Shown: positions 11,593-54,604, counted from the stretch's first letter. The stretch: DNA of 64,000 nt from an uncultured Verrucomicrobiae bacterium (GCA_963744965.1 CAVUVT010000008.1:69767-133766); one strand, 5' to 3'. The notes: generated from the letters alone by a model not told the origin. Numbers and translations are program-made.

Positions 11593-11651
11593 GTGGCACA
11601 GGCCTCCGGCCTGTGTGTTTGGTGAATCACAGGCGAGGACGCCTGTGCCAC
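11593..11651. repeat. REPIN, family 1 (GTGGCACAG...CTGTGCCAC)
   Basis: Two inverted GTGG+hairpin units: GTGGCACAGGCCTCCGGCCTGTG ... CACAGGCGAGGACGCCTGTGCCAC. Confidence 0.85.
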
Positions 11652-15265: not shown

Positions 15266-18163
15266 ATGGCGACCGATTACAAAAACACGCTCAACCTGCC
15301 GCGCACCGGCTTTCCCATGAAAGCCGACCTCGTTGCGCGGGAGCCGGAACGGCTCAAAAAATGGGAAGCCGCGCGGCTCTACCAAAAAATTCAGGAGCAA
15401 CGCATCGGCGCGGGAAAATTTGTTCTGCACGACGGCCCGCCCTTTGCCAACGGCGATGTCCACATCGGCACCGCGCTGAACAAGATTCTCAAGGACATCA
15501 TCATCAAATACAAAACCCTGCGGAATTTCAGCGCCCCGTATATACCGGGCTGGGATTGCCATGGATTGCCCATCGAATTCAAGGTTTCCCAGGAGATGCG
15601 CAAGGGGAGCGCGAACGTCCCGCCTGCGGATAAATCATTTGACGCCGCCACCATCCGCAAAGCCTGCGAAGCCGACGCCCGCAAATACATTGACATCCAG
15701 CGCACCCAATTCAAACGCCTCGGCGTCCTCGGCGACTGGGATAATCCGTATCTGACGCTGACCAAGGAATACGAAGCCGACGAGCTGCGCCTGTTTGCAG
15801 ACATCGTTGAAAAGGGTTTTGTCTATCGCGGCAAAAAACCGGTCTATTGGAGCATTCCCTGCCGCACCGCGCTCGCCGAAGCCGAGGTCGAATATCAGGA
15901 CCATGTCAGCCAGAGCATTTTTGTGAAGTTTCCCGTCGTCGGCCAGCCCAACACGTTTGTGCTCATCTGGACGACCACGCCTTGGACGCTGCCCGCCAAC
16001 CTCGCCGTTGCTTACAACGACAAATTCCAATATGTCCAGGTCGAGGTCACAGGTGAAAAATACATTTTATTCCGCGGTTTGCTGTCCGCCGTCGCGGAGA
16101 AGTGCGGCTGGAGCAATTACAACGAACAACCGTTCCCAACCGAAAAACTTGCCGCACTGCAGTTTCAGCATCCGTTCTGCAACCGCACTGGCAGATTTTA
16201 CCCCGCTGACTTCGTCACCAGCGACACCGGCACCGGTTTTGTCCACATCGCACCCGGCCACGGTCTCGAAGACTACGGTCTGGGCATGAAAGTCGGACTG
16301 CCGATTTATTCGCCCGTGGACGATGACGGCAAGTTCGCCTACACGAATGATTTGCCGGTCGAACAACAGATGCCGAAAGAAATGGTCGGCAAGTCCATTC
16401 TCGAAAAGCATGGCAAGAGCGATGCGAACGAAGCCGTGCTGCACGAATTGCGCGCGCGTCATGCTTTGTTGCACCAAGAGAATTATCATCACAGTTACCC
16501 GCATTGCTGGCGCAGCAAGACACCCATCATCTTCCGCGCGATGGACCAGTGGTTCATCAAGATTGACCACGTCGTGGCACAGGCCTCCGGCCTGTGTGCC
16601 GATGCCAAAAACACAGACCAGAGGTCTGTGCCACAAACCTTTCGCGCCGCTGCCCTCGCCGAGATTGACCGCGTGAAATGGGTCCCGGACTGGTGCGTCA
16701 ATCGCATCAAAAGCCTGGTGCAAACCCGTCCCGACTGGTGCATCTCGCGCCAGCGCACGTGGGGCGTGCCGATTCCGGCATTTTACGACGCCACGGGTGA
16801 ACCGATGCTCGATGCCCAAATCGTCCGCAACACTGCCGATCTGGTTGAAAAACACGGTTCCAACGTCTGGTTCGAGAAATCCGCCGCTGAACTGTGGTCA
16901 CTCGTAAAACCGAAGAATTGGAAAGGCGCGGAAGCCGTCAACAAGTCCAACGATACGCTCGATGTGTGGATTGATTCCGGCTCGTCCTCGCGCTCCGTTT
17001 TGATGCGACGGGCGGAATTTTCTCATTCCACAATCCACAATCCGCAATCCGCATTGGACTGGCAGGCCGACGTCTATCTCGAAGGCAGTGACCAGCACCG
17101 CGGCTGGTTCCAATCATCGCTGCTGCTGTCACTCGCGGGCAACGGTGCCGCGCCGTTCAAGACCGTGCTCACGCATGGATTCATGGTGGATGCCGACCGC
17201 GAAAAGATTTCCAAGAGCAAACAGGCCCAGGGCGGCTACGAAAAACCGCAGACGGCCGAGGCTTACGTGAAGAAACACGGCGCGGACATCGTCCGCCTGT
17301 GGGTCGCGTCACAAGATTATCGCAACGACATCATCGTGAGCGAGGAACGCATTGCCAAAGTCGGCGAAACCTATCGCGGCATCCGCAACGCCCTGCGCTA
17401 CCAACTCTCGAACCTTTGCGACTTCGATCCGGCCAAGCACACCGTGCGCGAAGACGAACTTACCGGCCTCGACCGCTGGATTCTTGGCGAATTCTCCAAA
17501 CTCGAACAGGAAGTTCTCAAAGCTTACGACGACTACGAATTCCACGTAGTCTATCAAAAAGTCAGCCAGTTCATCGCCGTGGAGCTGTCCTCAATTTACC
17601 ACGACGTCATCAAGGATCGGCTCTACACCGACCCGGCCAATTCGCATCGCCGCCGCTCGACACAGACCACGCTGCACCGGCTGGTGACCGGCCTGTGCCA
17701 GATGCTCGCGCCGATTCTGGCGTTCACGGCGGACGAAGCGTGGGAGTTTGTGCCGAAAGCTGTCGTCTCGGTTCATCAAAGTGAATGGATAGCCAGACCG
17801 TTTATGCTCGATCCTCGTGAGCTCGATATATGGGATTGGCTCAAGCTCTGGCGCGAACAACTTCTTCCCGAACTGGAAAAGGCGCGTCAGGCCAAAGCAA
17901 TTGGCAAAGCATTGGAAGCCAAAGTTGAAATCGTCATACCGCAAGTTCAAAATCAGTATTCCGATCGGGAATTGCTCCGCGAACTCGTCAACGTATCGGC
18001 TTTGAAAATTACTGTTGGCAATCCCGTTTCAATCTCGGTTTCTAAAGCCGACGGCCAGAAATGCGAGCGCTGCTGGCATTGGGAAACGGATGTCGGCCAG
18101 AACGCCGAGCATCCGACCATTTGCGGTCGTTGTATCGAGGCGGTGAAACAATTCAAAATGTGA
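15266..18163 (+). CDS. ileS: isoleucine--tRNA ligase
   Basis: N-terminus MATDYKNTLNLPRTGFPMK, HIGH (GDVHIGT), KMSKS (KISKSK) and a C-terminal zinc finger CERCW...CGRC. Confidence 0.97.
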   Translation: MATDYKNTLNLPRTGFPMKADLVAREPERLKKWEAARLYQKIQEQRIGAGKFVLHDGPPFANGDVHIGTALNKILKDIIIKYKTLRNFSAPYIPGWDCHGLPIEFKVSQEMRKGSANVPPADKSFDAATIRKACEADARKYIDIQRTQFKRLGVLGDWDNPYLTLTKEYEADELRLFADIVEKGFVYRGKKPVYWSIPCRTALAEAEVEYQDHVSQSIFVKFPVVGQPNTFVLIWTTTPWTLPANLAVAYNDKFQYVQVEVTGEKYILFRGLLSAVAEKCGWSNYNEQPFPTEKLAALQFQHPFCNRTGRFYPADFVTSDTGTGFVHIAPGHGLEDYGLGMKVGLPIYSPVDDDGKFAYTNDLPVEQQMPKEMVGKSILEKHGKSDANEAVLHELRARHALLHQENYHHSYPHCWRSKTPIIFRAMDQWFIKIDHVVAQASGLCADAKNTDQRSVPQTFRAAALAEIDRVKWVPDWCVNRIKSLVQTRPDWCISRQRTWGVPIPAFYDATGEPMLDAQIVRNTADLVEKHGSNVWFEKSAAELWSLVKPKNWKGAEAVNKSNDTLDVWIDSGSSSRSVLMRRAEFSHSTIHNPQSALDWQADVYLEGSDQHRGWFQSSLLLSLAGNGAAPFKTVLTHGFMVDADREKISKSKQAQGGYEKPQTAEAYVKKHGADIVRLWVASQDYRNDIIVSEERIAKVGETYRGIRNALRYQLSNLCDFDPAKHTVREDELTGLDRWILGEFSKLEQEVLKAYDDYEFHVVYQKVSQFIAVELSSIYHDVIKDRLYTDPANSHRRRSTQTTLHRLVTGLCQMLAPILAFTADEAWEFVPKAVVSVHQSEWIARPFMLDPRELDIWDWLKLWREQLLPELEKARQAKAIGKALEAKVEIVIPQVQNQYSDRELLRELVNVSALKITVGNPVSISVSKADGQKCERCWHWETDVGQNAEHPTICGRCIEAVKQFKM
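16574..16634. repeat. family 1 REPIN inside the ileS coding sequence
   Basis: GTGGCACAGGCCTCCGGCCTGTG...CACAGACCAGAGGTCTGTGCCAC, translated in frame as VAQASGLCADAKNTDQRSVPQ. Confidence 0.85.
17024..17058 (+). repeat. heptamer array (CAATCCR x5) inside ileS
   Basis: CATTCCA CAATCCA CAATCCG CAATCCG CATTGGA, encoding HSTIHNPQSAL. Confidence 0.8.
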
Positions 18164-19511: not shown

Positions 19512-19593
19512 CGTGAAGCCGTTCAAGGTATAATTGTGGCACAGACCTCCGGTCTGTGTTCCCAACCCCTCACAGGTCGGAGACCTGTGCCAC
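19512..19593 (+). repeat. direct repeat unit 1: ileS-tail-like 21 nt (VKPFKV*) plus family 1 REPIN
   Basis: GTGAAGCCGTTCAAGGTATAA + REPIN 19536-19593. Near-identical to 19806-19887. Confidence 0.8.
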
Positions 19594-19829: not shown

Positions 19830-19887
19830 GTGGCACAGACCTCTGGTCTGCGTTTCCAATCCCTCACAGGCCGGAGGCCTGTGCCAC
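19830..19887. repeat. REPIN, family 1
   Basis: GTGGCACAGACCTCTGGTCTGCG...CACAGGCCGGAGGCCTGTGCCAC. Ends 1 nt before the GH28 stop codon. Confidence 0.9.
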
Positions 19888-22608: not shown

Positions 22609-22665
22609 GTGGCACAGACCTCTGGTCTGTGTTTCAAACCCACACAGGCCGGAGGCCTGTGCCAC
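22609..22665. repeat. REPIN, family 1
   Basis: GTGGCACAGACCTCTGGTCTGTG...CACAGGCCGGAGGCCTGTGCCAC, between convergent genes. Confidence 0.9.
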
Positions 22666-28938: not shown

Positions 28939-29092
28939 GTAGCACCCGCGTCTCGCGGGTTGAATTCGGCGTCCCGCCGAATTCTGTTGTGTGACATAGG
29001 TTGCAGGCAATCGGGCAAGTGTGAAACGTTCGTTCGTCCCGCAACAGTTTCGGGCGGGACGCCCGAAACAACAGGCCGGAGGCCTGTGCTAC
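28939..29092. repeat. REP cluster: family 2 REP plus second hairpin, an inverted second-hairpin module, and a family 1 half-REP
   Basis: GTAGCACCCGCGTCTCGCGGGT + GAATTCGGCGTCCCGCCGAATTC (28939-28985); GTTTCGGGCGGGACGCCCGAAAC (29047-29069); ACAGGCCGGAGGCCTGTGCTAC (29071-29092). Confidence 0.8.
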
Positions 29093-32025
29093 CCCAGACT
29101 CACCGGATCAATATCCACCATGAGCGTTACGTCTTCGGGCAAGACGAGCGTTTCGATGATTTTTGCCAGGGCCAGGCTCAGTTTGCTCATCGCGCGCGTC
29201 CGCAGCATGATTTGGTAGCGGTAAAAAGTTTCCGCGCGCAGCAATGGTGCCGGCGCCGGACCGGCGATGATTAAGTCGCGGAAGTCCACAGTCTTCAGTC
29301 CACAGTCGGATTTTGCGCTGGCCGGACCGTCTGAGGGCTGAGGACTGTGAACTGTGGACTGCGGATTGCGGACTGCGGACTCAAGGACTTTTCGCAAATG
29401 TTCGGCGGAAAATTTTACCTTGTCCTCATTGCGGCCCTTGAGCGTGAGCAGCGCGACACGACTGACGGGCGGATATTTCAGTTGTTCACGGAACTCGATT
29501 TCCTGTTCGTAAAAGCCGGGGAAGTCGTGGCGGCGCGAGTATTGAATCGCCGGATGAAACGGCGCAAATGCCTGCACGAACACCTCGCCCTCAACGTCGC
29601 CGCGGCCGGCGCGCCCGGCGACCTGCGTGAGCAGTTGGAAGGTGCGCTCGCCCGCGCGAAAATCCGGCTGATGTAGCGCGAGATCGGCGTAAATGATGCC
29701 CACGAGCGTGACGTTCGGGAAATGCAGCCCCTTCGCAATCATCTGCGTCCCGACGAGGATGTCGGTCTTGCCGGTGCGGAAATCTCCGAGCGTTTTCCGG
29801 TAATCATCCTTGCGTTTCATCGTGTCGGCGTCCATGCGTTTGACGCGCGCTTGGGGAAATAGTTTGGCGAGCGTCTCCTCGACCCGCTGCGTGCCCGTGC
29901 CGGCAAAACGAATCGCGGGATTTTTGCATTTTTCGTTCGGGCAAACGGACGGCACCGGCGCGACATGACCGCAAATGTGGCAGCAAAGCTTTTGCTCCTG
30001 CCGATGAAACGTGAGCGCCAGGCTGCAATTCGGACATTGCGCCACGTAACCGCATTTCGGGCATTGCAGCGAAGTCGAGTAGCCGCGCCGGTTCAAAAAC
30101 AAAATCGTTTGCTCGCCACGTTCGAGCCGTTGGGTGATGGCTTCCTTGAGTTGTGGCGAAAAAATCGGGATGCCTTCCTTCCCGCGCTGGCGGGACGCGG
30201 CTTGGCGCATGTCCACGACGCGTACGTGCGGCATTTTCTGGTCGTCCACGCGCTCCGGCAATTCGAGCAGCGTATATTTGCCGTGTTTGCAATTGTAATA
30301 GCTTTCCAGCGACGGTGTGGCCGAACCGAGCACGACGACGGCATTTTCCATCCGGCCGCGCATAATGGCCACGTCGCGGGCATGGTAGCGCGGCGCTTCC
30401 TCCTGCTTGTAGGTGTGCTCGTGTTCCTCGTCCACGATGATGAGGCCGAGCGGCTCGACCGGCGCAAAAATCGCCGAACGGGCGCCAATGACGATGCGGG
30501 CACGGCCTTGGCGGATTTTGTGCCATTCGTCATGGCGTTCGCCGGCGGACAAATGCGAATGCAAGACCGCCACGAGCGTTTGCAGTCTGCCGGAACTGAA
30601 CCGCGCCTTGAATCGCTCGACCGTCTGCGGTGTGAGCGAGATTTCCGGCACAAGCACAATCGCACCCTGGCCTCGTTCGAGCGCGTGGGCGAGGGCTTGG
30701 AGGTAGATTTCCGTCTTGCCCGAGCCGGTGACTCCATGAAGCAAGAAAACTTGAGATGGCTTTGCGGTGTCCGATTCCTGTTGTGTAGCACCCGCGTCTC
30801 GCGGGTCATGTTTGGCGTCCCGCCGAACATTTTCAAGGGTGTCGGATGCCACCGGCGTCCAGATGTAAGGATAATCTTCCATGGGTCCGACCAGCCCAAT
30901 CGTCCGCGGGTTGTTCCAAATGTAATCCCAGGTTTTGTGCAAGTCTGCTTCGGATCGAATCAGGCGGTCAAAGGATTCATCCGTCCAGACCGGCCCGGAA
31001 CGTTGCATCACCTTGTTCACCTCGTGGGCGGAAAATGATTTGATACTGTGTAGAATTCCGGTGAGCGAGTGGACCCCGTCTTTTCCGGCTTCCTGAGTCG
31101 GTAAAGGTTGAATCAGCAAATGAACGTGGTCAGGCATGACACACGCGGCGTAACATTTCACTTTTTTACCGTGCCAGTGATGGCAGGCTTCCAGCGTTTT
31201 GGTGCGCGCCTCGGGAGAAAGAACAAGCTTATCGTGCGTCCGCCAGGTGACGTGATAGGTAAAACCCGGAATTTCAAAATGCGGCAGGCTGCGTTTGCGG
31301 GCGGTGGTTTCTGAAATCGGACCGGGTTTGGTTGCCGTACGAGAAGCGGGCGCGACGCCCGCCTCCACCCGCGTCCCGCGGGTGCTACCACAGCGATTCA
31401 TCGCCGCGATGATTTTCTCCAACGCTTTTGCCTGGGCATCATTCAATGCCAGCGGCTGGGACGGCAGAATATGTTCGCGGGCATACGGATCGCGCTCGGA
31501 AATCTGCGGGGCAATCTCAATCAGACCGCGGTCTTCAAGTTTGCGGACAGTGGCGGCGGTGGTTTCGGCCAGTTCGACCAACTCCTGCAACGGCAATTCA
31601 CGCCGTTCTTCGATGATGTTCCACACCTCGTGTTGACGTTTCGGCAATTTTGGAAATTCGCCGGGCGGTGGCACTGCGCGGACAAACAATCGCTCGCGCC
31701 AGCCGGATTCCTCCTTGCGCACGGCTTCGGGCAGAACGGATTTCAGCGCGGTTTCCGGCGCGCAACAGTAGTAATCGGCAATCCAGCGCGCGAGTTTCAG
31801 GACCTTCGGCGTGACGAGCGTCTGGGCGCCGATGACTTTCAGAATGGGTTTGAGATTGGTATGTGCGGATTCCTCGGCGAGGGCGGTGACGCAACCCAGG
31901 ATTTTTCGCGGGCCGAATGGCACCTGTACGCGGCTGCCGACCTCGATTTGTCCGGCCAATCCGGGCGGAATCTGATAATCGAACTCCTTGCGGAGCGCGA
32001 TTTCGAGGCTGACGCGGGCAATCAT
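29089..32025 (-). CDS. priA: primosomal replication-restart helicase PriA carrying in-frame insertions (978 aa)
   Basis: PriA N-terminal domain, Walker A GVTGSGKTEIYL, DEEH box, and Cys-rich zinc region CPKCG...CPNCS...CHICGH. About 211 extra aa lie before Walker A and about 33 extra aa near the C-terminus. Confidence 0.9.
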   Translation of the reverse strand: MIARVSLEIALRKEFDYQIPPGLAGQIEVGSRVQVPFGPRKILGCVTALAEESAHTNLKPILKVIGAQTLVTPKVLKLARWIADYYCCAPETALKSVLPEAVRKEESGWRERLFVRAVPPPGEFPKLPKRQHEVWNIIEERRELPLQELVELAETTAATVRKLEDRGLIEIAPQISERDPYAREHILPSQPLALNDAQAKALEKIIAAMNRCGSTRGTRVEAGVAPASRTATKPGPISETTARKRSLPHFEIPGFTYHVTWRTHDKLVLSPEARTKTLEACHHWHGKKVKCYAACVMPDHVHLLIQPLPTQEAGKDGVHSLTGILHSIKSFSAHEVNKVMQRSGPVWTDESFDRLIRSEADLHKTWDYIWNNPRTIGLVGPMEDYPYIWTPVASDTLENVRRDAKHDPRDAGATQQESDTAKPSQVFLLHGVTGSGKTEIYLQALAHALERGQGAIVLVPEISLTPQTVERFKARFSSGRLQTLVAVLHSHLSAGERHDEWHKIRQGRARIVIGARSAIFAPVEPLGLIIVDEEHEHTYKQEEAPRYHARDVAIMRGRMENAVVVLGSATPSLESYYNCKHGKYTLLELPERVDDQKMPHVRVVDMRQAASRQRGKEGIPIFSPQLKEAITQRLERGEQTILFLNRRGYSTSLQCPKCGYVAQCPNCSLALTFHRQEQKLCCHICGHVAPVPSVCPNEKCKNPAIRFAGTGTQRVEETLAKLFPQARVKRMDADTMKRKDDYRKTLGDFRTGKTDILVGTQMIAKGLHFPNVTLVGIIYADLALHQPDFRAGERTFQLLTQVAGRAGRGDVEGEVFVQAFAPFHPAIQYSRRHDFPGFYEQEIEFREQLKYPPVSRVALLTLKGRNEDKVKFSAEHLRKVLESAVRNPQSTVHSPQPSDGPASAKSDCGLKTVDFRDLIIAGPAPAPLLRAETFYRYQIMLRTRAMSKLSLALAKIIETLVLPEDVTLMVDIDPVSLG
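29283..29381. repeat. 99-nt heptamer-array inverted repeat inside priA
   Basis: Left arm AGTCCACAGTCTTCAGTCCACAGTC. Right arm GACTGTGAACTGTGGACTGCGGATTGCGGACTGCGGACT. Translated as VRNPQSTVHSPQPSDGPASAKSDCGLKTVD. Confidence 0.8.
30785..31388 (-). mobile_element. REP-RAYT-REP unit (Y1 HUH transposase flanked by inverted GTAG hairpins) nested in priA
   Basis: Protein motifs FTYHVTWRT, PDHVHLLIQP (HUH) and WDYIWNNP (catalytic Tyr). Termini are GTAGCACCCGCG-NNN-CGCGGGT at 30785-30806 (plus strand) and 31388-31367 (minus strand). Confidence 0.8.
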
Positions 32026-37061: not shown

Positions 37062-38222
37062 TCAAATCATTTCGCGAATTTTCTGCACGCAGTGTTCCAG
37101 CGATTCATCCGGCTGCAATTCAATCCATTCTAGATTTTTCTGGGCGCGGAACCAGGTCAGTTGCCGCCTGGCAAACTGCCGGGTGCGGATTTTCACCAGC
37201 TCGATGGTTTCCGCCAATGACCGTTCGCCGCGCAGATGTTCCACCACCTGCCGGTAGCCGATGGCCTGCATCGCCGTTTTGTTTTCCGCCAGGCCGCGCT
37301 TGAGCAATTCGCGCGTCTCGTCCACCAAACCGCGCCGGAACATCGCGTCCACGCGGGCGTTGATGCGGGCGTGCAAATCGGAACTTGAACGGGTGAACAC
37401 GAAAAAGAAATTCCTGGAGGGAAGCGCTTCGTCGCTTCCCTGTTTCTTTGGAGAATCGGGGCACTGACGAAGCAGTGCCCTCCAAGGTTTGCCGGGAATC
37501 TCGCCCCACCGTGATTGCTGTGCGGAGAATGGTTTGCCCGTCAAGCGAATCACTTCCACGGCACGAATGACACGGCGCGGATTTTGGCGGTCAATTTTTT
37601 CGTAAGCCGCCGGATCGCGTTCGCACAGTTCGGCCAGCAATTTTTCCAGCGGCATGGTTTCGAGTTCAGCGCGCAATTTTGCGTCGGCAGACGGCGCATC
37701 GCCCAACCCTTCGAGAAAGGCCTTGAAGTAAAGTCCGGTGCCGCCGCAGAGAACCGGCACGTGGCCGCACGACTGGATTTCCGCGACGGCGCGGTGCGCG
37801 AGCCGGGTGAACTGCGCGGCGTCGAATGATTCGGTCAGATCAAGAATATCAACCAGGTGATGCGGCACACGGGCGCGGTCGGCGGGCGATGGCTTGGCCG
37901 TGCCGATGTCGAGTCCGCGATAGACCTGCATGGAATCGGCGGAAATGATTTCGCCGCCGAGTTGTTCCGCGAGGCGCAGGGCGATTTCGGATTTGCCAGT
38001 GGCGGTCGGACCGGCGAGGAGGACGGGGCGGGAATTCCCCGAACGAATTTGCGCTTTGAACCCCTGAACCGGGGCACAGTCTCTGGGAGCGCTGGCGTCT
38101 CGCCGGCGGGTTCCGGCTTTCGGCTCCCGACTGGCTGGCGGGACGCCGGCGCTCCCAGGTGGTTCGTGGGGAGGATGGTGGTCGGGAGTATTTGCCATCT
38201 TCAATCCTCCATTCTCCATCAT
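37062..38222 (-). CDS. miaA: tRNA dimethylallyltransferase MiaA with repeat-derived extensions
   Basis: P-loop GPTATGKSEIAL, and DSMQVYRGLDIGTAKP. About 75 aa of N-terminal extension and an internal insert coincide with palindromic DNA elements. Start uncertain. Confidence 0.88.
   Translation of the reverse strand: MMENGGLKMANTPDHHPPHEPPGSAGVPPASREPKAGTRRRDASAPRDCAPVQGFKAQIRSGNSRPVLLAGPTATGKSEIALRLAEQLGGEIISADSMQVYRGLDIGTAKPSPADRARVPHHLVDILDLTESFDAAQFTRLAHRAVAEIQSCGHVPVLCGGTGLYFKAFLEGLGDAPSADAKLRAELETMPLEKLLAELCERDPAAYEKIDRQNPRRVIRAVEVIRLTGKPFSAQQSRWGEIPGKPWRALLRQCPDSPKKQGSDEALPSRNFFFVFTRSSSDLHARINARVDAMFRRGLVDETRELLKRGLAENKTAMQAIGYRQVVEHLRGERSLAETIELVKIRTRQFARRQLTWFRAQKNLEWIELQPDESLEHCVQKIREMI
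37416..37483. repeat. family 3 double-hairpin element inside miaA
   Basis: GGAGGGAAGCGCTTCGTCGCTTCCC...GGGGCACTGACGAAGCAGTGCCCTCC. The first 25 nt are identical to the birA copy. Confidence 0.85.
38086..38155. repeat. GGARCGCCGG-type palindromic element in the miaA 5' region
   Basis: GGAGCGCTGGCGTCTCGCCGGCGGG...CTGGCGGGACGCCGGCGCTCC. Confidence 0.7.
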
Positions 38223-43318: not shown

Positions 43319-43463
43319 AGCCACAGATGAAACACAGATTGAACACAGATAAAAAATCTGACTGACCCGGCAGCGCTGGTGTTATATGTCACGATGACTT
43401 CGCAAGTTTTATCAAAGCAGAATTGTCATTTATCTGTGTTTCATCTGTGTTCAATCTGTGGCT
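43319..43463. mobile_element. MITE-like element with AGCCACAGAT-type arrayed terminal inverted repeats
   Basis: Left arm AGCCACAGATGAAACACAGATTGAACACAGATAAA. Right arm TTTATCTGTGTTTCATCTGTGTTCAATCTGTGGCT. Non-coding core of about 75 nt. Confidence 0.7.
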
Positions 43464-53240: not shown

Positions 53241-53568
53241 AGCCACAGATGAACACAGATGAAACACAGATTTTCAAAAATGACGCTTCACCAGAAACTT
53301 GATTGGCTGATTGACCAGTGGTGTGAACGCAGAGCGGTGCGGCCACTGAAATGTCTTTTACGGGCTTATCCTGGTGTGCTGGTTCACAAAGACCAGTTTG
53401 GTGATTTGCTTGAAGCCCGCCGGGATGCAAAAGGTTTGTGTCGAGACGAATTAACCCAAGATGAACTTGGATATGTACTCTCATCCATCAATGAACTGGA
53501 AGATTGCATGAAACAGAAAACTAAATGATTTGGCTTCATCTGTGTTCAATCTGTGTTCATCTGTGGCT
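53241..53568. mobile_element. AGCCACAGAT-type inverted-repeat cassette carrying one small ORF
   Basis: Left arm AGCCACAGATGAACACAGATGAAACACAGAT. Right arm ATCTGTGTTCAATCTGTGTTCATCTGTGGCT. Same terminal family as 43319-43463. Confidence 0.7.
53280..53528 (+). CDS. hypothetical small protein (82 aa; 89 aa if started at 53259)
   Basis: MTLHQKLDWLIDQWCERRAV... with helical composition and lower GC. No family recognised. Confidence 0.45.
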   Translation: MTLHQKLDWLIDQWCERRAVRPLKCLLRAYPGVLVHKDQFGDLLEARRDAKGLCRDELTQDELGYVLSSINELEDCMKQKTK

Positions 53569-53576
53569 AAAATAAA

Positions 53577-54604
53577 ATGACGACGGACGCAAAAATTCTT
53601 TCCGCATTGCGCGAGAATGCCGCCGGGGTTTCGGGCGCGGACCTGGCCGGGCAGTTGGGCGTCACACGCGCGGCGGTCTGGGGGCGCATCGAGCAGTTGC
53701 GCCAGCTCGGCTACGAAATCGAGGCCGGCCCGCATTTTGGCTACCGGCTGGTCAGCACGCCGGATGTGTTGCACGCCGACGATTTGCTCGCCCGGCTTGG
53801 AGGGAAGCGCTTCGTCGCTTCCCCAAATAAAATGGGCATTGACGAAGCAATGCCTTCCAAAATCATCGGCCGCGACATCCGCGTGTTCGAGCAAACGACC
53901 TCGACGAACGACGTGATCGAAAAACTCGCCCGCGACGGCGTCAAGGAGGGTGCGGTCGTTTTTGCCGAGTCGCAGACGAAGGGCCGGGGCCGGCTGGGCG
54001 CAAATGGATTTCGCCCGAACGGAAGGGACTTTGGTTTTCCGTTTTGCTGCGACCGGCTTTGCGCCCGCAGGAAGCGACGCAATTGACGGTCGCTTCCGCA
54101 ACGGCCCTGCGCCGCGCGATTCAATCCGAAACCGGTTTGCATCCCGAAATCAAATGGCCGAACGACATTTTGATTGGGGGAAAAAAAGTCGCGGGCATCT
54201 TGACCGAGCTGAACGCGGAACTGGACCGGGTCCGTCACATCATCCTGGGCATCGGCGTGGACGTAAATTTGAACCCGAGCGAGTTTCCGGCGGAGTTGCG
54301 CAAGGTGGCGACCTCGCTCAAAATTGAATCGGGCAAAACAATTTCGCGCCCGGAACTGGCGACGGCGATTTTGCGCGAGCTGGATAACGATTACGCAAGG
54401 ATTTGCGGCGGCGGCTTCGCGGCGGTGGCGGACGAATGGGAAGCGCATTGCCAGACGATTGGCCGCAACGTGACGATTCAAACCGGTGAGCGCAGAATTC
54501 GCGGTTGCGCGGAGTCGTTGGATGACGACGGCGCGTTGCTGCTGCGCACCGAGCACGGGCATCTGGAGCGCGTCACCGGCGGCGATGTGACGCTGGAGAA
54601 ATGA
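53577..54604 (+). pseudogene. birA: bifunctional biotin--protein ligase/repressor BirA, split by an apparent 1-nt deletion
   Basis: HTH N-terminus and AESQTKGRGRLG are in frame 0. KWISPERKGLWFSVLLRP...KWPNDILIGGKKVAGIL is in the -1 frame. The frames join at the GGG run at 53996-53998. Confidence 0.88.
53799..53858. repeat. family 3 double-hairpin element inside birA (60 nt)
   Basis: GGAGGGAAGCGCTTCGTCGCTTCCCC...GGGCATTGACGAAGCAATGCCTTCC, translated as GGKRFVASPNKMGIDEAMPS. Confidence 0.85.

Follow-up and report, generated by a model that had tools for sequence, protein, structure and literature searches.

The stretch of DNA analysed here (64,000 nt, one strand, called the window below) comes from an uncultured Verrucomicrobiae bacterium (GCA_963744965.1 CAVUVT010000008.1:69767-133766) and carries, among other genes, miaA on the minus strand and birA on the plus strand. 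Each of these two genes contains a short double-hairpin element in its coding sequence. A preliminary description of the window had proposed that one such element, with 25 identical nucleotides, is translated inside both genes. In this study, we examined the two copies, their relatives in other genomes, and the hairpins that bracket a transposase gene in some of these relatives.

Two copies of a double-hairpin element in the window

The 25-nt sequence GGAGGGAAGCGCTTCGTCGCTTCCC matches the window exactly twice, at 37416-37440 and 53799-53823, both times on the plus strand, whereas 100 dinucleotide-preserving shuffles gave an expectation of zero for such a repeat. The pattern GGGN5CTTCGTN5CCC was found four times in the window against 0.45 expected, in agreement with the description of two hairpins per copy with a common CTTCGTC/GACGAAG loop region. 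Each unit follows the formula TGGA + GGGNNNNG + CTTCGT + CNNNNCCC, with an 8-bp hairpin stem, and the complete element, or doublet, consists of two convergent units across a spacer, the second being a mirror image that terminates in TCCA. Read on the opposite strand, the second hairpin is GGGCACTG-CTTCGT-CAGTGCCC in miaA (37459-37480) and AGGCATTG-CTTCGT-CAATGCCC in birA (53834-53855). The outer ends had been said to pair, and they do so over one base more per end than stated: an additional T and A extend the terminal inverted repeat to TGGAGGG...CCCTCCA, which gives the full units the extents listed in Table 1. For reasons given below, a single unit is referred to as a repetitive extragenic palindrome (REP).

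Table 1. Positions of the two doublets, their parts and their host genes, counted from the first letter of the window (ORF, open reading frame; REPIN, a doublet of inverted REPs)
Feature	Position	Strand	Remarks
miaA ORF (386 aa as listed)	37062..38222	-	doublet encodes aa 247-269
REP doublet (REPIN-like, 70 nt) in miaA	37415..37484		TGGAGGGAAGCG-CTTCGT-CGCTTCCC, 18-nt spacer, GGGCACTG-ACGAAG-CAGTGCCCTCCA
Left REP, miaA copy	37415..37440	+	TGGA foot, 8-bp stem GGGAAGCG/CGCTTCCC, loop CTTCGT
Right REP, miaA copy	37459..37484	-	minus-strand reading TGGA-GGGCACTG-CTTCGT-CAGTGCCC
Candidate remnant arm of a different palindromic element	37485..37509	-	minus strand GTGGGGCGAGATTCCCGGCAAACCT, encodes WGEIPGKP; abuts the miaA doublet
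birA	53577..54604	+	split into ORFs 53577..54086 and 54044..54604; doublet is aa 76-94 of the intact 342 aa
REP doublet (62 nt) in birA	53798..53859		TGGAGGGAAGCG-CTTCGT-CGCTTCCC, 10-nt spacer, GGGCATTG-ACGAAG-CAATGCCTTCCA
Left REP, birA copy	53798..53823	+	identical to miaA left REP
Right REP, birA copy	53834..53859	-	minus-strand reading TGGAAGGCATTG-CTTCGT-CAATGCCC

The left unit has the inner stem AAGCG/CGCTT in both copies, and the right units have CACTG/CAGTG (miaA) and CATTG/CAATG (birA). The inner stems of the right units differ from that of the left unit, and from each other, through compensatory pairs only. Between the right and left REPs of miaA three stem pairs are changed, all three of them compensatory, and the change from CACTG/CAGTG to CATTG/CAATG between the two right REPs is also compensatory, with one foot-proximal base altered in addition. 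The two spacers are unrelated in sequence. Folded as single-stranded DNA, both copies form two hairpins and an outer TGGA/TCCA helix, with energies of -15.7 to -20.8 kcal/mol and z-scores of -3.5 to -5.0 versus shuffles. An Rfam scan of the whole window returned only one tRNA and gave no match at the element in miaA or birA.

Both copies lie in variable loops of their host proteins

Comparison with orthologues indicates that both window copies are insertions. The miaA ORF reads ...GKPWRALLRQCPDSPKKQGSDEALPSRN... across the doublet and the birA ORF starting at 53577 (+) reads ...GGKRFVASPNKMGIDEAMPS..., just as they had been translated before; the peptide stretches across the inserts are ...LGGKRFVASPNK... 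and ...WRALLRQCPDSPK.... These peptides differ because the frame and the orientation differ.

The window MiaA is 100% identical to a protein (P0001) named MiaA of a Limisphaerales metagenome-assembled genome (MAG), which assigns the window to a MAG of this order. In its AlphaFold model the predicted local distance difference test (pLDDT) score is below 50 at aa 1-62 and aa 237-266, and the insert falls largely within the latter low-confidence stretch, between a helix and a strand. The loop that receives it is bounded by ...SRW and ...F(Y/F)CFTR in the orthologue alignment. Among 120 MiaA orthologues, 14 carry this element, as WRALLRQCP...QGSDEALPS. In the others the same loop is nearly absent, is made up of four tandem heptamers, or has an insert belonging to one of at least five further types. 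Immediately upstream of the miaA doublet, the sequence GTGGGGCGAGATTCCCGGCAAACC, which encodes WGEIPGKP, resembles the left arm of one of these insert families: relatives read ..RWGETPGEP..SRGRSPHQ in this loop, L122 and L132 have an inverted repeat CGAGACTCCGTCGAGC...GCTCGACGGAGTCTCG, and a WGERPREP...LAPP insert is also present among BirA orthologues. Because of this resemblance, the miaA doublet perhaps sits beside an older remnant, and sequence similarity suggests that the abutting segment in Table 1 is probably the remaining arm of an older palindromic element.

MiaA homologues are mostly 314-350 aa long, as compared with 386 aa for the listed ORF. Together with the low pLDDT of aa 1-62, this places the true start of miaA probably downstream, and the N-terminal ~60 aa of the listed ORF are probably not part of the real protein. 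A further 25-nt inverted repeat (CTGGGAGCGCTGGCGTCTCGCCGGC / GCTGGCGGGACGCCGGCGCTCCCAG) lies in this extension at 38083-38158, and is thus probably extragenic.

A single nucleotide is missing from birA near 53996-54000, in CTGGG-CGC, and this splits the gene. Once repaired, its product shows 100% identity to a 342-aa protein in public data (P0121) that is free of the frameshift, so the split probably reflects strain variation or a homopolymer assembly error and does not make birA a pseudogene. The AlphaFold model of BirA has pLDDT below 50 at aa 74-108, and the insert lies in this region, in the linker following the winged helix-turn-helix (wHTH) domain. Of 120 close BirA orthologues, 98 are insert-free and read ARLG-KTK-VIGRD, 3 have this element, and ~19 have other inserts in the same linker. 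In a 90%-identical relative (L199/L200) the empty site reads CTCGGCAAAACGAAGGTCATC, and the filled site (window and L201) reads CT-TGGAGGG...CCTTCCA-AAATCATC, such that the 62-nt unit stands in place of 11 nt, a net gain of 51 nt. No target-site duplication was found at this filled/empty pair. The empty site contains ACGAAG, the loop motif of the element, and is similar to the right arm GGCATTGACGAAGC as well, which may be a coincidence or a hint of target homology, being a single case with a rough chance of ~1%. Neighbour joining gave a tree in which filled and empty BirA variants are interspersed. Its resolution is weak, and it neither proves independent gains nor excludes turnover.

A dispersed hairpin family with covarying stems

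One genome per species was scanned with the pattern GGARGGNNNNGCTTCGTCNNNNCCC, in which four stem pairs are left free, and at least 118 loci were found. Among the 127 pattern matches listed, 54 have all four free pairs in Watson-Crick form, as compared with ~0.5 expected for a pairing probability near 0.26 per position, and these 54 comprise 15 distinct stems. The fully paired matches listed are almost all from Verrucomicrobiota MAGs (Limisphaerales/Verrucomicrobiia, Chthoniobacterales, and Terrimicrobiaceae), whereas the non-palindromic ones are spread over other phyla and look like chance. A few matches are labelled Limnocylindrales or Acidiferrales. Their host genes resemble Verrucomicrobial ones (the start of IleRS in L044 resembles that of the window), and we infer that the odd labels are binning errors.

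Several MAGs have at least 3-7 separate loci each, and the window has two doublets in 64 kb. In all the DNA collected, 22 convergent doublets were found. They measure 59-83 nt, of which the spacer accounts for 7-31 nt, and every one combines two different stems. Nearly all copies of the family have a TGGA foot, and most copies appear intergenic. No target-site duplication was found in the flanks of about 20 doublets.

Copies in other genes and reading frames

The longest spanning ORF is an unreliable proxy for genic location, shadow ORFs being common in GC-rich DNA, so a host gene is named here only if its protein could be recognised. Besides both window copies, at least 10 copies in relatives are in frame inside genes, including fmt (L006, L018, L025, and L095), ileS (L044 and L060), panC (L078), a uvrD-like helicase gene (L014 and L032), and miaA (L064). 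For the forward hairpin the readings are GGKRFVAS, WRALLRQCP, and LEGTASSVP, in all three frames, and for the reverse hairpin they are G(S/I/T)DEA(L/M/V)PS, such as GSDEALPS, and GQRRSAALQ. The earlier proposal that the element is open in several combinations of frame and orientation therefore extends beyond the opposite orientations in miaA and birA to all three frames of each hairpin across hosts, and doublets average 4.5 of six frames open versus 2.75 in shuffles. It seems that no specific peptide is selected and that survival needs only an in-frame, stop-free, and tolerated insert. From the intact frames, the inserts are presumably translated.

These data also bear on whether the shared sequence could be a coincidence, a functional protein motif common to MiaA and BirA, or an assembly artefact. 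Only the fact that both ORFs stay open speaks for such an explanation. No match was expected by chance, the miaA and birA peptides differ and are missing from most orthologues, and independent assemblies and species (L064, L201, and P0121-P0123) share this DNA, as do other genes. The orthologue alignments and the genome scan thus refute this explanation, which we regard as extremely improbable. The preliminary description had named, as the outcome that would speak against it, a 25-mer unique in the genome together with homologous peptides in orthologues; the 25-mer is not unique, and orthologues lack homologous peptides at these positions. Its view of one repeated element inside two unrelated genes is supported, and the element belongs to a dispersed family absent from most BirA and many MiaA orthologues.

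A transposase gene bracketed by the same hairpins

Clustering of the ORFs from 65 element-bearing sources (64 loci and the window) yielded only syntenic housekeeping genes and no recurrent transposase near the elements. The transposase emerged only from tblastn searches, in which E. coli RayT and IS200 sequences served solely as approximate queries. The RayT bait matched one locus (L059) with E = 1.5e-7, and this match was then checked by Pfam, by source names, and by flanking hairpins. The gene at L059 encodes DHIH, WQ, and YVWRNP motifs, of which DHIH and YVWRNP are the HUH and catalytic Tyr features of Y1 transposases, and matches Pfam Y1_Tnp weakly, with E = 4.8e-4 and 20.7 bits. The reconstructed protein has more than 100 intact homologues of ~160 aa, many of which are named 'REP-associated tyrosine transposase' (RAYT) or 'RayT' by the Joint Genome Institute (JGI), and several have a precomputed PF01797 match.

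In L059 and L202-L206, six contigs in total, the RAYT gene is bracketed on both sides by inverted TGGAGGG-N5-CTTCGT-N5-CCC hairpins. In the simplest case (L204), 15 nt separate the end of one hairpin from the start codon, and the mirror image of this hairpin begins 5 nt past the stop codon. Loop variants (CTCTGT, CTCCGT, and CTTTGT) were found in L205 and L206. The RAYT gene adjoins cstA, usually together with nadD, in L059 and L202-L205, which represents a conserved neighbourhood. RAYT genes have been described as conserved and as behaving like single-copy genes (bioRxiv 10.1101/2021.07.10.451892). Because hairpins of the family bracket a RAYT gene, an arrangement known as a REPtron, we take the element to be a REP doublet, or REPIN.

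Alternatively, the element might be a conventional MITE (a miniature transposable element with inverted repeats), a deletion derivative of an insertion sequence with a DDE transposase, mobilised via its TGGAGGG terminal inverted repeats. The element is indeed short and dispersed and ends in TGGAGGG...CCCTCCA, and MITEs are reportedly also able to insert in frame. However, target-site duplications are absent from about 20 doublets and from the birA filled/empty pair, and no recurrent transposase other than the RAYT appeared in the ORF clusters of the 65 element-bearing loci. Moreover, the gene that the hairpins bracket is a Y1 (HUH) gene and not a DDE gene, and the interior consists of two independent covarying hairpins, as in REPs. 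Thus, we consider a MITE very unlikely.

Hairpin conservation and turnover at the same sites

Between the miaA genes of the window and of L064, whose MiaA proteins are 69% identical, 51 of the 52 REP nucleotides and 11 of the 18 spacer nucleotides are identical, whereas the flanks match at 73-83% and their third codon positions at only 53-72%. Likewise, the AAGCG hairpin is identical in fmt of four species-level MAGs; the partner arm decays in two of these cases (L095 and L025). Such excess conservation points to some nucleotide-level constraint or to homogenisation. Structural selection, homogenisation among copies, and repeated re-insertion are all possible causes.

The near-invariant arms amid diverging flanks and spacers, together with the identical fmt hairpin, would suit a hairpin that the host selects for structure or regulation, through mRNA stability, inter-domain translational pausing, or binding of gyrase or a nucleoid protein. 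It would be kept in miaA, birA, fmt, and ileS for its usefulness, with the RAYT merely maintaining it. The compensatory stem changes that keep the pairing, and the position of inserts at domain boundaries, are also consistent with this. Against a host-selected hairpin, the 98 of 120 BirA orthologues do without it and the filled variants are scattered on the tree, the partner arm decays in fmt of two relatives, the same loops take unrelated palindromic families and heptamer arrays, and most family copies are intergenic. Recent insertion or homogenisation could equally give the conservation. Such a role therefore appears unlikely.

Different families were found at one position in the miaA loop, the birA linker, and ileS. 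The window ileS (15266-18163 +) contains at 16574-16634 a doublet of a second REP family, GTGG-CACAGGCC-TCC-GGCCTGTG ... CACAGACC-AGA-GGTCTGTG-CCAC, which is open in frame as 'VAQASGLCADAKNTDQRSVPQ'. This GTGG doublet lies 1-5 nt from the position of the TGGAGGG doublet in L044 and L060. In more distant relatives the site is a hypervariable loop of IleRS; the IleRS library, clustered at 50% identity, is too coarse for counts of families at this site. In the inter-domain linker of fmt, other palindromic inserts were observed ~40 nt downstream of the TGGAGGG doublet (L018, L025, and L095). These differ between species and are absent in L006, and they represent clustering only, with a second insert ~40 nt away, rather than replacement at the same site.

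It is tempting to speculate that a colonised loop turns into a permanent landing pad, in which heptamer arrays and REP doublets from different RAYT families take each other's place, and that nucleotide-level selection or homogenisation by the RAYT, and not drift, keeps the hairpins within coding sequence. The different families at one position in miaA, birA, and ileS would be compatible with this, as would hairpin conservation far above that of the codons alongside. If so, REPIN turnover would be site-directed, for example with resident hairpins as insertion targets, and essential genes would be long-term refuges for REP elements. Same-site turnover, if real, would also offer a handle on REPIN target choice. 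However, given that filled BirA variants are scattered on the tree and that the IleRS site is hypervariable, a short permissive loop with repeated independent insertions is sufficient for the pattern, and a landing pad is an idea we hold as possible but rather doubtful. Different REPs at about one recB site have been reported for two Xanthomonas species (Di Nocera et al. 2013, PMC3733652).

Other repeats in the window

The most notable by-product of the analysis, and more surprising than the miaA and birA doublets, is an in-frame fusion of a single-strand-acting transposase to a replication-restart helicase. The priA ORF (978 aa, 29089-32025, minus strand) contains a complete in-frame REP-RAYT-REP unit at ~30785-31388. 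Its Pfam Y1_Tnp match of 29.5 bits, over the cut-off, covers aa 255-349, with the DNA-binding part on its N-terminal side and the helicase core on the other, and the unit is flanked by inverted GTAG-CACCCGCG hairpin doublets. Additional copies from the GTGG-CACAGRCC family of REPs, with the canonical GT[AG]G foot and covarying stems, occur at 11593-11651, 19536-19593, 19830-19887, 22609-22665, and 29071-29092. These copies sit between ORFs, including one convergent gene pair. REP families with GTGG or GTAG feet are therefore present in the window alongside the TGGA family.

Tandem arrays of about four heptamers, the unit differing from site to site, lie in the window at 17027, 23401, 28190, 28236, 29283, 29331, 32090, and 59126, and are also found in relatives (L120, L133, L135-L137, and L141). 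Some are inverted pairs, such as 28190/28236 and also 29283/29331, which is in frame in the C-terminal part of priA. In miaA relatives without hairpin inserts, the loop consists of four heptamers that are lineage-specific (TCGTCAC, ATTCAAA, AGCGGAA, AGTCCAC, or ACCCCAG). The arrays are reminiscent of the short tandemly repeated repetitive (STRR) heptamers of cyanobacteria. Finally, two elements have termini of iterated 11-nt units, GCCACAGATGAAACACAGAT... and inverted ...ATCTGTGTTCAATCTGTGGC, at 43321-43462 (142 bp) and 53243-53568 (326 bp). The longer one lies between nadC and birA and contains an 89-aa ORF without a Pfam match; in a close relative (L199) nadC and birA are separated by no more than a 78-nt spacer.

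Discussion

We consider it very likely that each of the two sites is a REP doublet of a family with a fixed TGGA-GGG foot and CTTCGT loop, a covarying inner stem, and a cognate RAYT in relatives, and that each has landed in frame in a flexible protein loop. As judged from sequence comparison, the family is widespread in Verrucomicrobiota and forms a REPtron system with a single-copy RAYT in related Limisphaerales/Verrucomicrobiia genomes. Several points weigh against a REP doublet. The RAYT of L059 is under the Pfam gathering cut-off (20.7 versus 23 bits) and has two frameshifts, and the cognate RAYT is not within the 64-kb window, the link for this genome running via relatives. Canonical RAYT-associated REPs are defined by a GT[AG]G foot (PMC6006769), whereas TGGA takes this place here. 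The birA insertion is not a clean cut-and-paste event, since 11 nt of the empty site are gone, and the hairpins are better conserved than expected for a purely neutral passenger. Lastly, no transposition event was observed, and we infer mobility from the features described above.

IS200/IS605 and E. coli TnpA-REP suggest, by analogy, that the RAYT, as an HUH/Y1 enzyme, would bind the hairpins on single-stranded DNA, probably at replication forks, cleave beside the hairpin foot, and move or copy the doublet without target-site duplication. Copies within genes would survive only if the net length keeps the frame, no stop codon arises, and a flexible surface linker accommodates ~20 extra residues. 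Fitting sites would be the miaA loop and the BirA linker between the N-terminal wHTH and the catalytic domain, and the doublet would then be translated as a passenger peptide without a required sequence. The RAYT-catalysed mobility, the translation of the inserts, and the neutrality of the peptides are all putative.

In-frame intragenic REPs are an already known kind of event, and in this respect the finding is real but fairly ordinary. Its significance is raised somewhat by the non-GTAG foot with an identifiable RAYT, by the nucleotide-level conservation of genic copies, and by the recurrent use of the same loops. A widespread REP family with such a foot and RAYT may serve as a test of how Y1 transposases read the guide tetranucleotide. 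In addition, odd extra peptides in essential Verrucomicrobial proteins may be passengers of the REP/RAYT system, and annotators and structure predictors may take 17-25-residue inserts of this kind as repeat-derived.

Comparison with known systems

Like the REP/REPIN-RAYT systems of E. coli (REP and bacterial interspersed mosaic elements with TnpA-REP) and Pseudomonas (REPINs), the family described here has ~22-nt hairpins whose foot is conserved, and which form inverted doublets. Its copies are dispersed and probably numerous, and a single-copy Y1/HUH gene is bracketed by the same hairpins in a conserved neighbourhood. Doublets of two different hairpins are also known from several REP families (PMC3733652). 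Unlike these systems, the foot is TGGA rather than GT[AG]G, and the 6-nt loop CTTCGT is invariant, with variants at L205 and L206, while the inner stem varies freely. Furthermore, both window copies lie in frame within genes, whereas REPINs have been described as extragenic almost without exception (bioRxiv 10.1101/2021.07.10.451892). The family is therefore structurally a REPIN/RAYT system, and departs from it in the GT[AG]G foot and, for the window copies, in the extragenic location. Y1 genes flanked by atypical hairpins in hundreds of copies, with feet other than GT[AG]G (for example CnGA), have been described as class 3 and subclass 2.6 TnpA-Y1 (Quentin et al. 2018, PMC6006769). The present RAYT shares the non-GT[AG]G feet with them, but it has a class-2-like YVWRNP motif and WQ instead of the Y----Q signature of class 3.

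The palindromic elements of Rickettsia (RPEs) are likewise found in frame in many housekeeping genes as apparently tolerated surface peptides. They belong to another phylum and have no sequence similarity to the TGGA element, which is also shorter than RPE-1. A CGTC tag marks RPE-4 and RPE-6, for which no dedicated transposase is known (PMC3733652). CGTC-tagged REPs, including these two, are recognised by an unpaired terminal CGTC, a stem of 8-9 bp whose first pairs are A/T, a loop of 4-5 nt, and a tail reading CCA. We rejected an assignment to this group, since CGTC is internal in the present family, the stem starts with GGG, and the loop has 6 nt; the one point of resemblance is the TCCA end, which recalls the CCA tail.

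Although REPs normally lie outside genes, REPs wholly inside ORFs, tagged by GTAG or CGTC, have been catalogued in organisms including Opitutus terrae (Verrucomicrobia) and Rickettsia (Di Nocera et al. 2013, PMC3733652). The TGGA family is not in that list and has no terminal GTAG or CGTC, the latter occurring only at the loop-stem junction. In other respects the catalogued REPs resemble the intragenic copies described here: they are singles or dimers entirely within the ORFs of known proteins, to which they add ~20-30 residues, and their hosts are often DNA repair, tRNA or translation genes.

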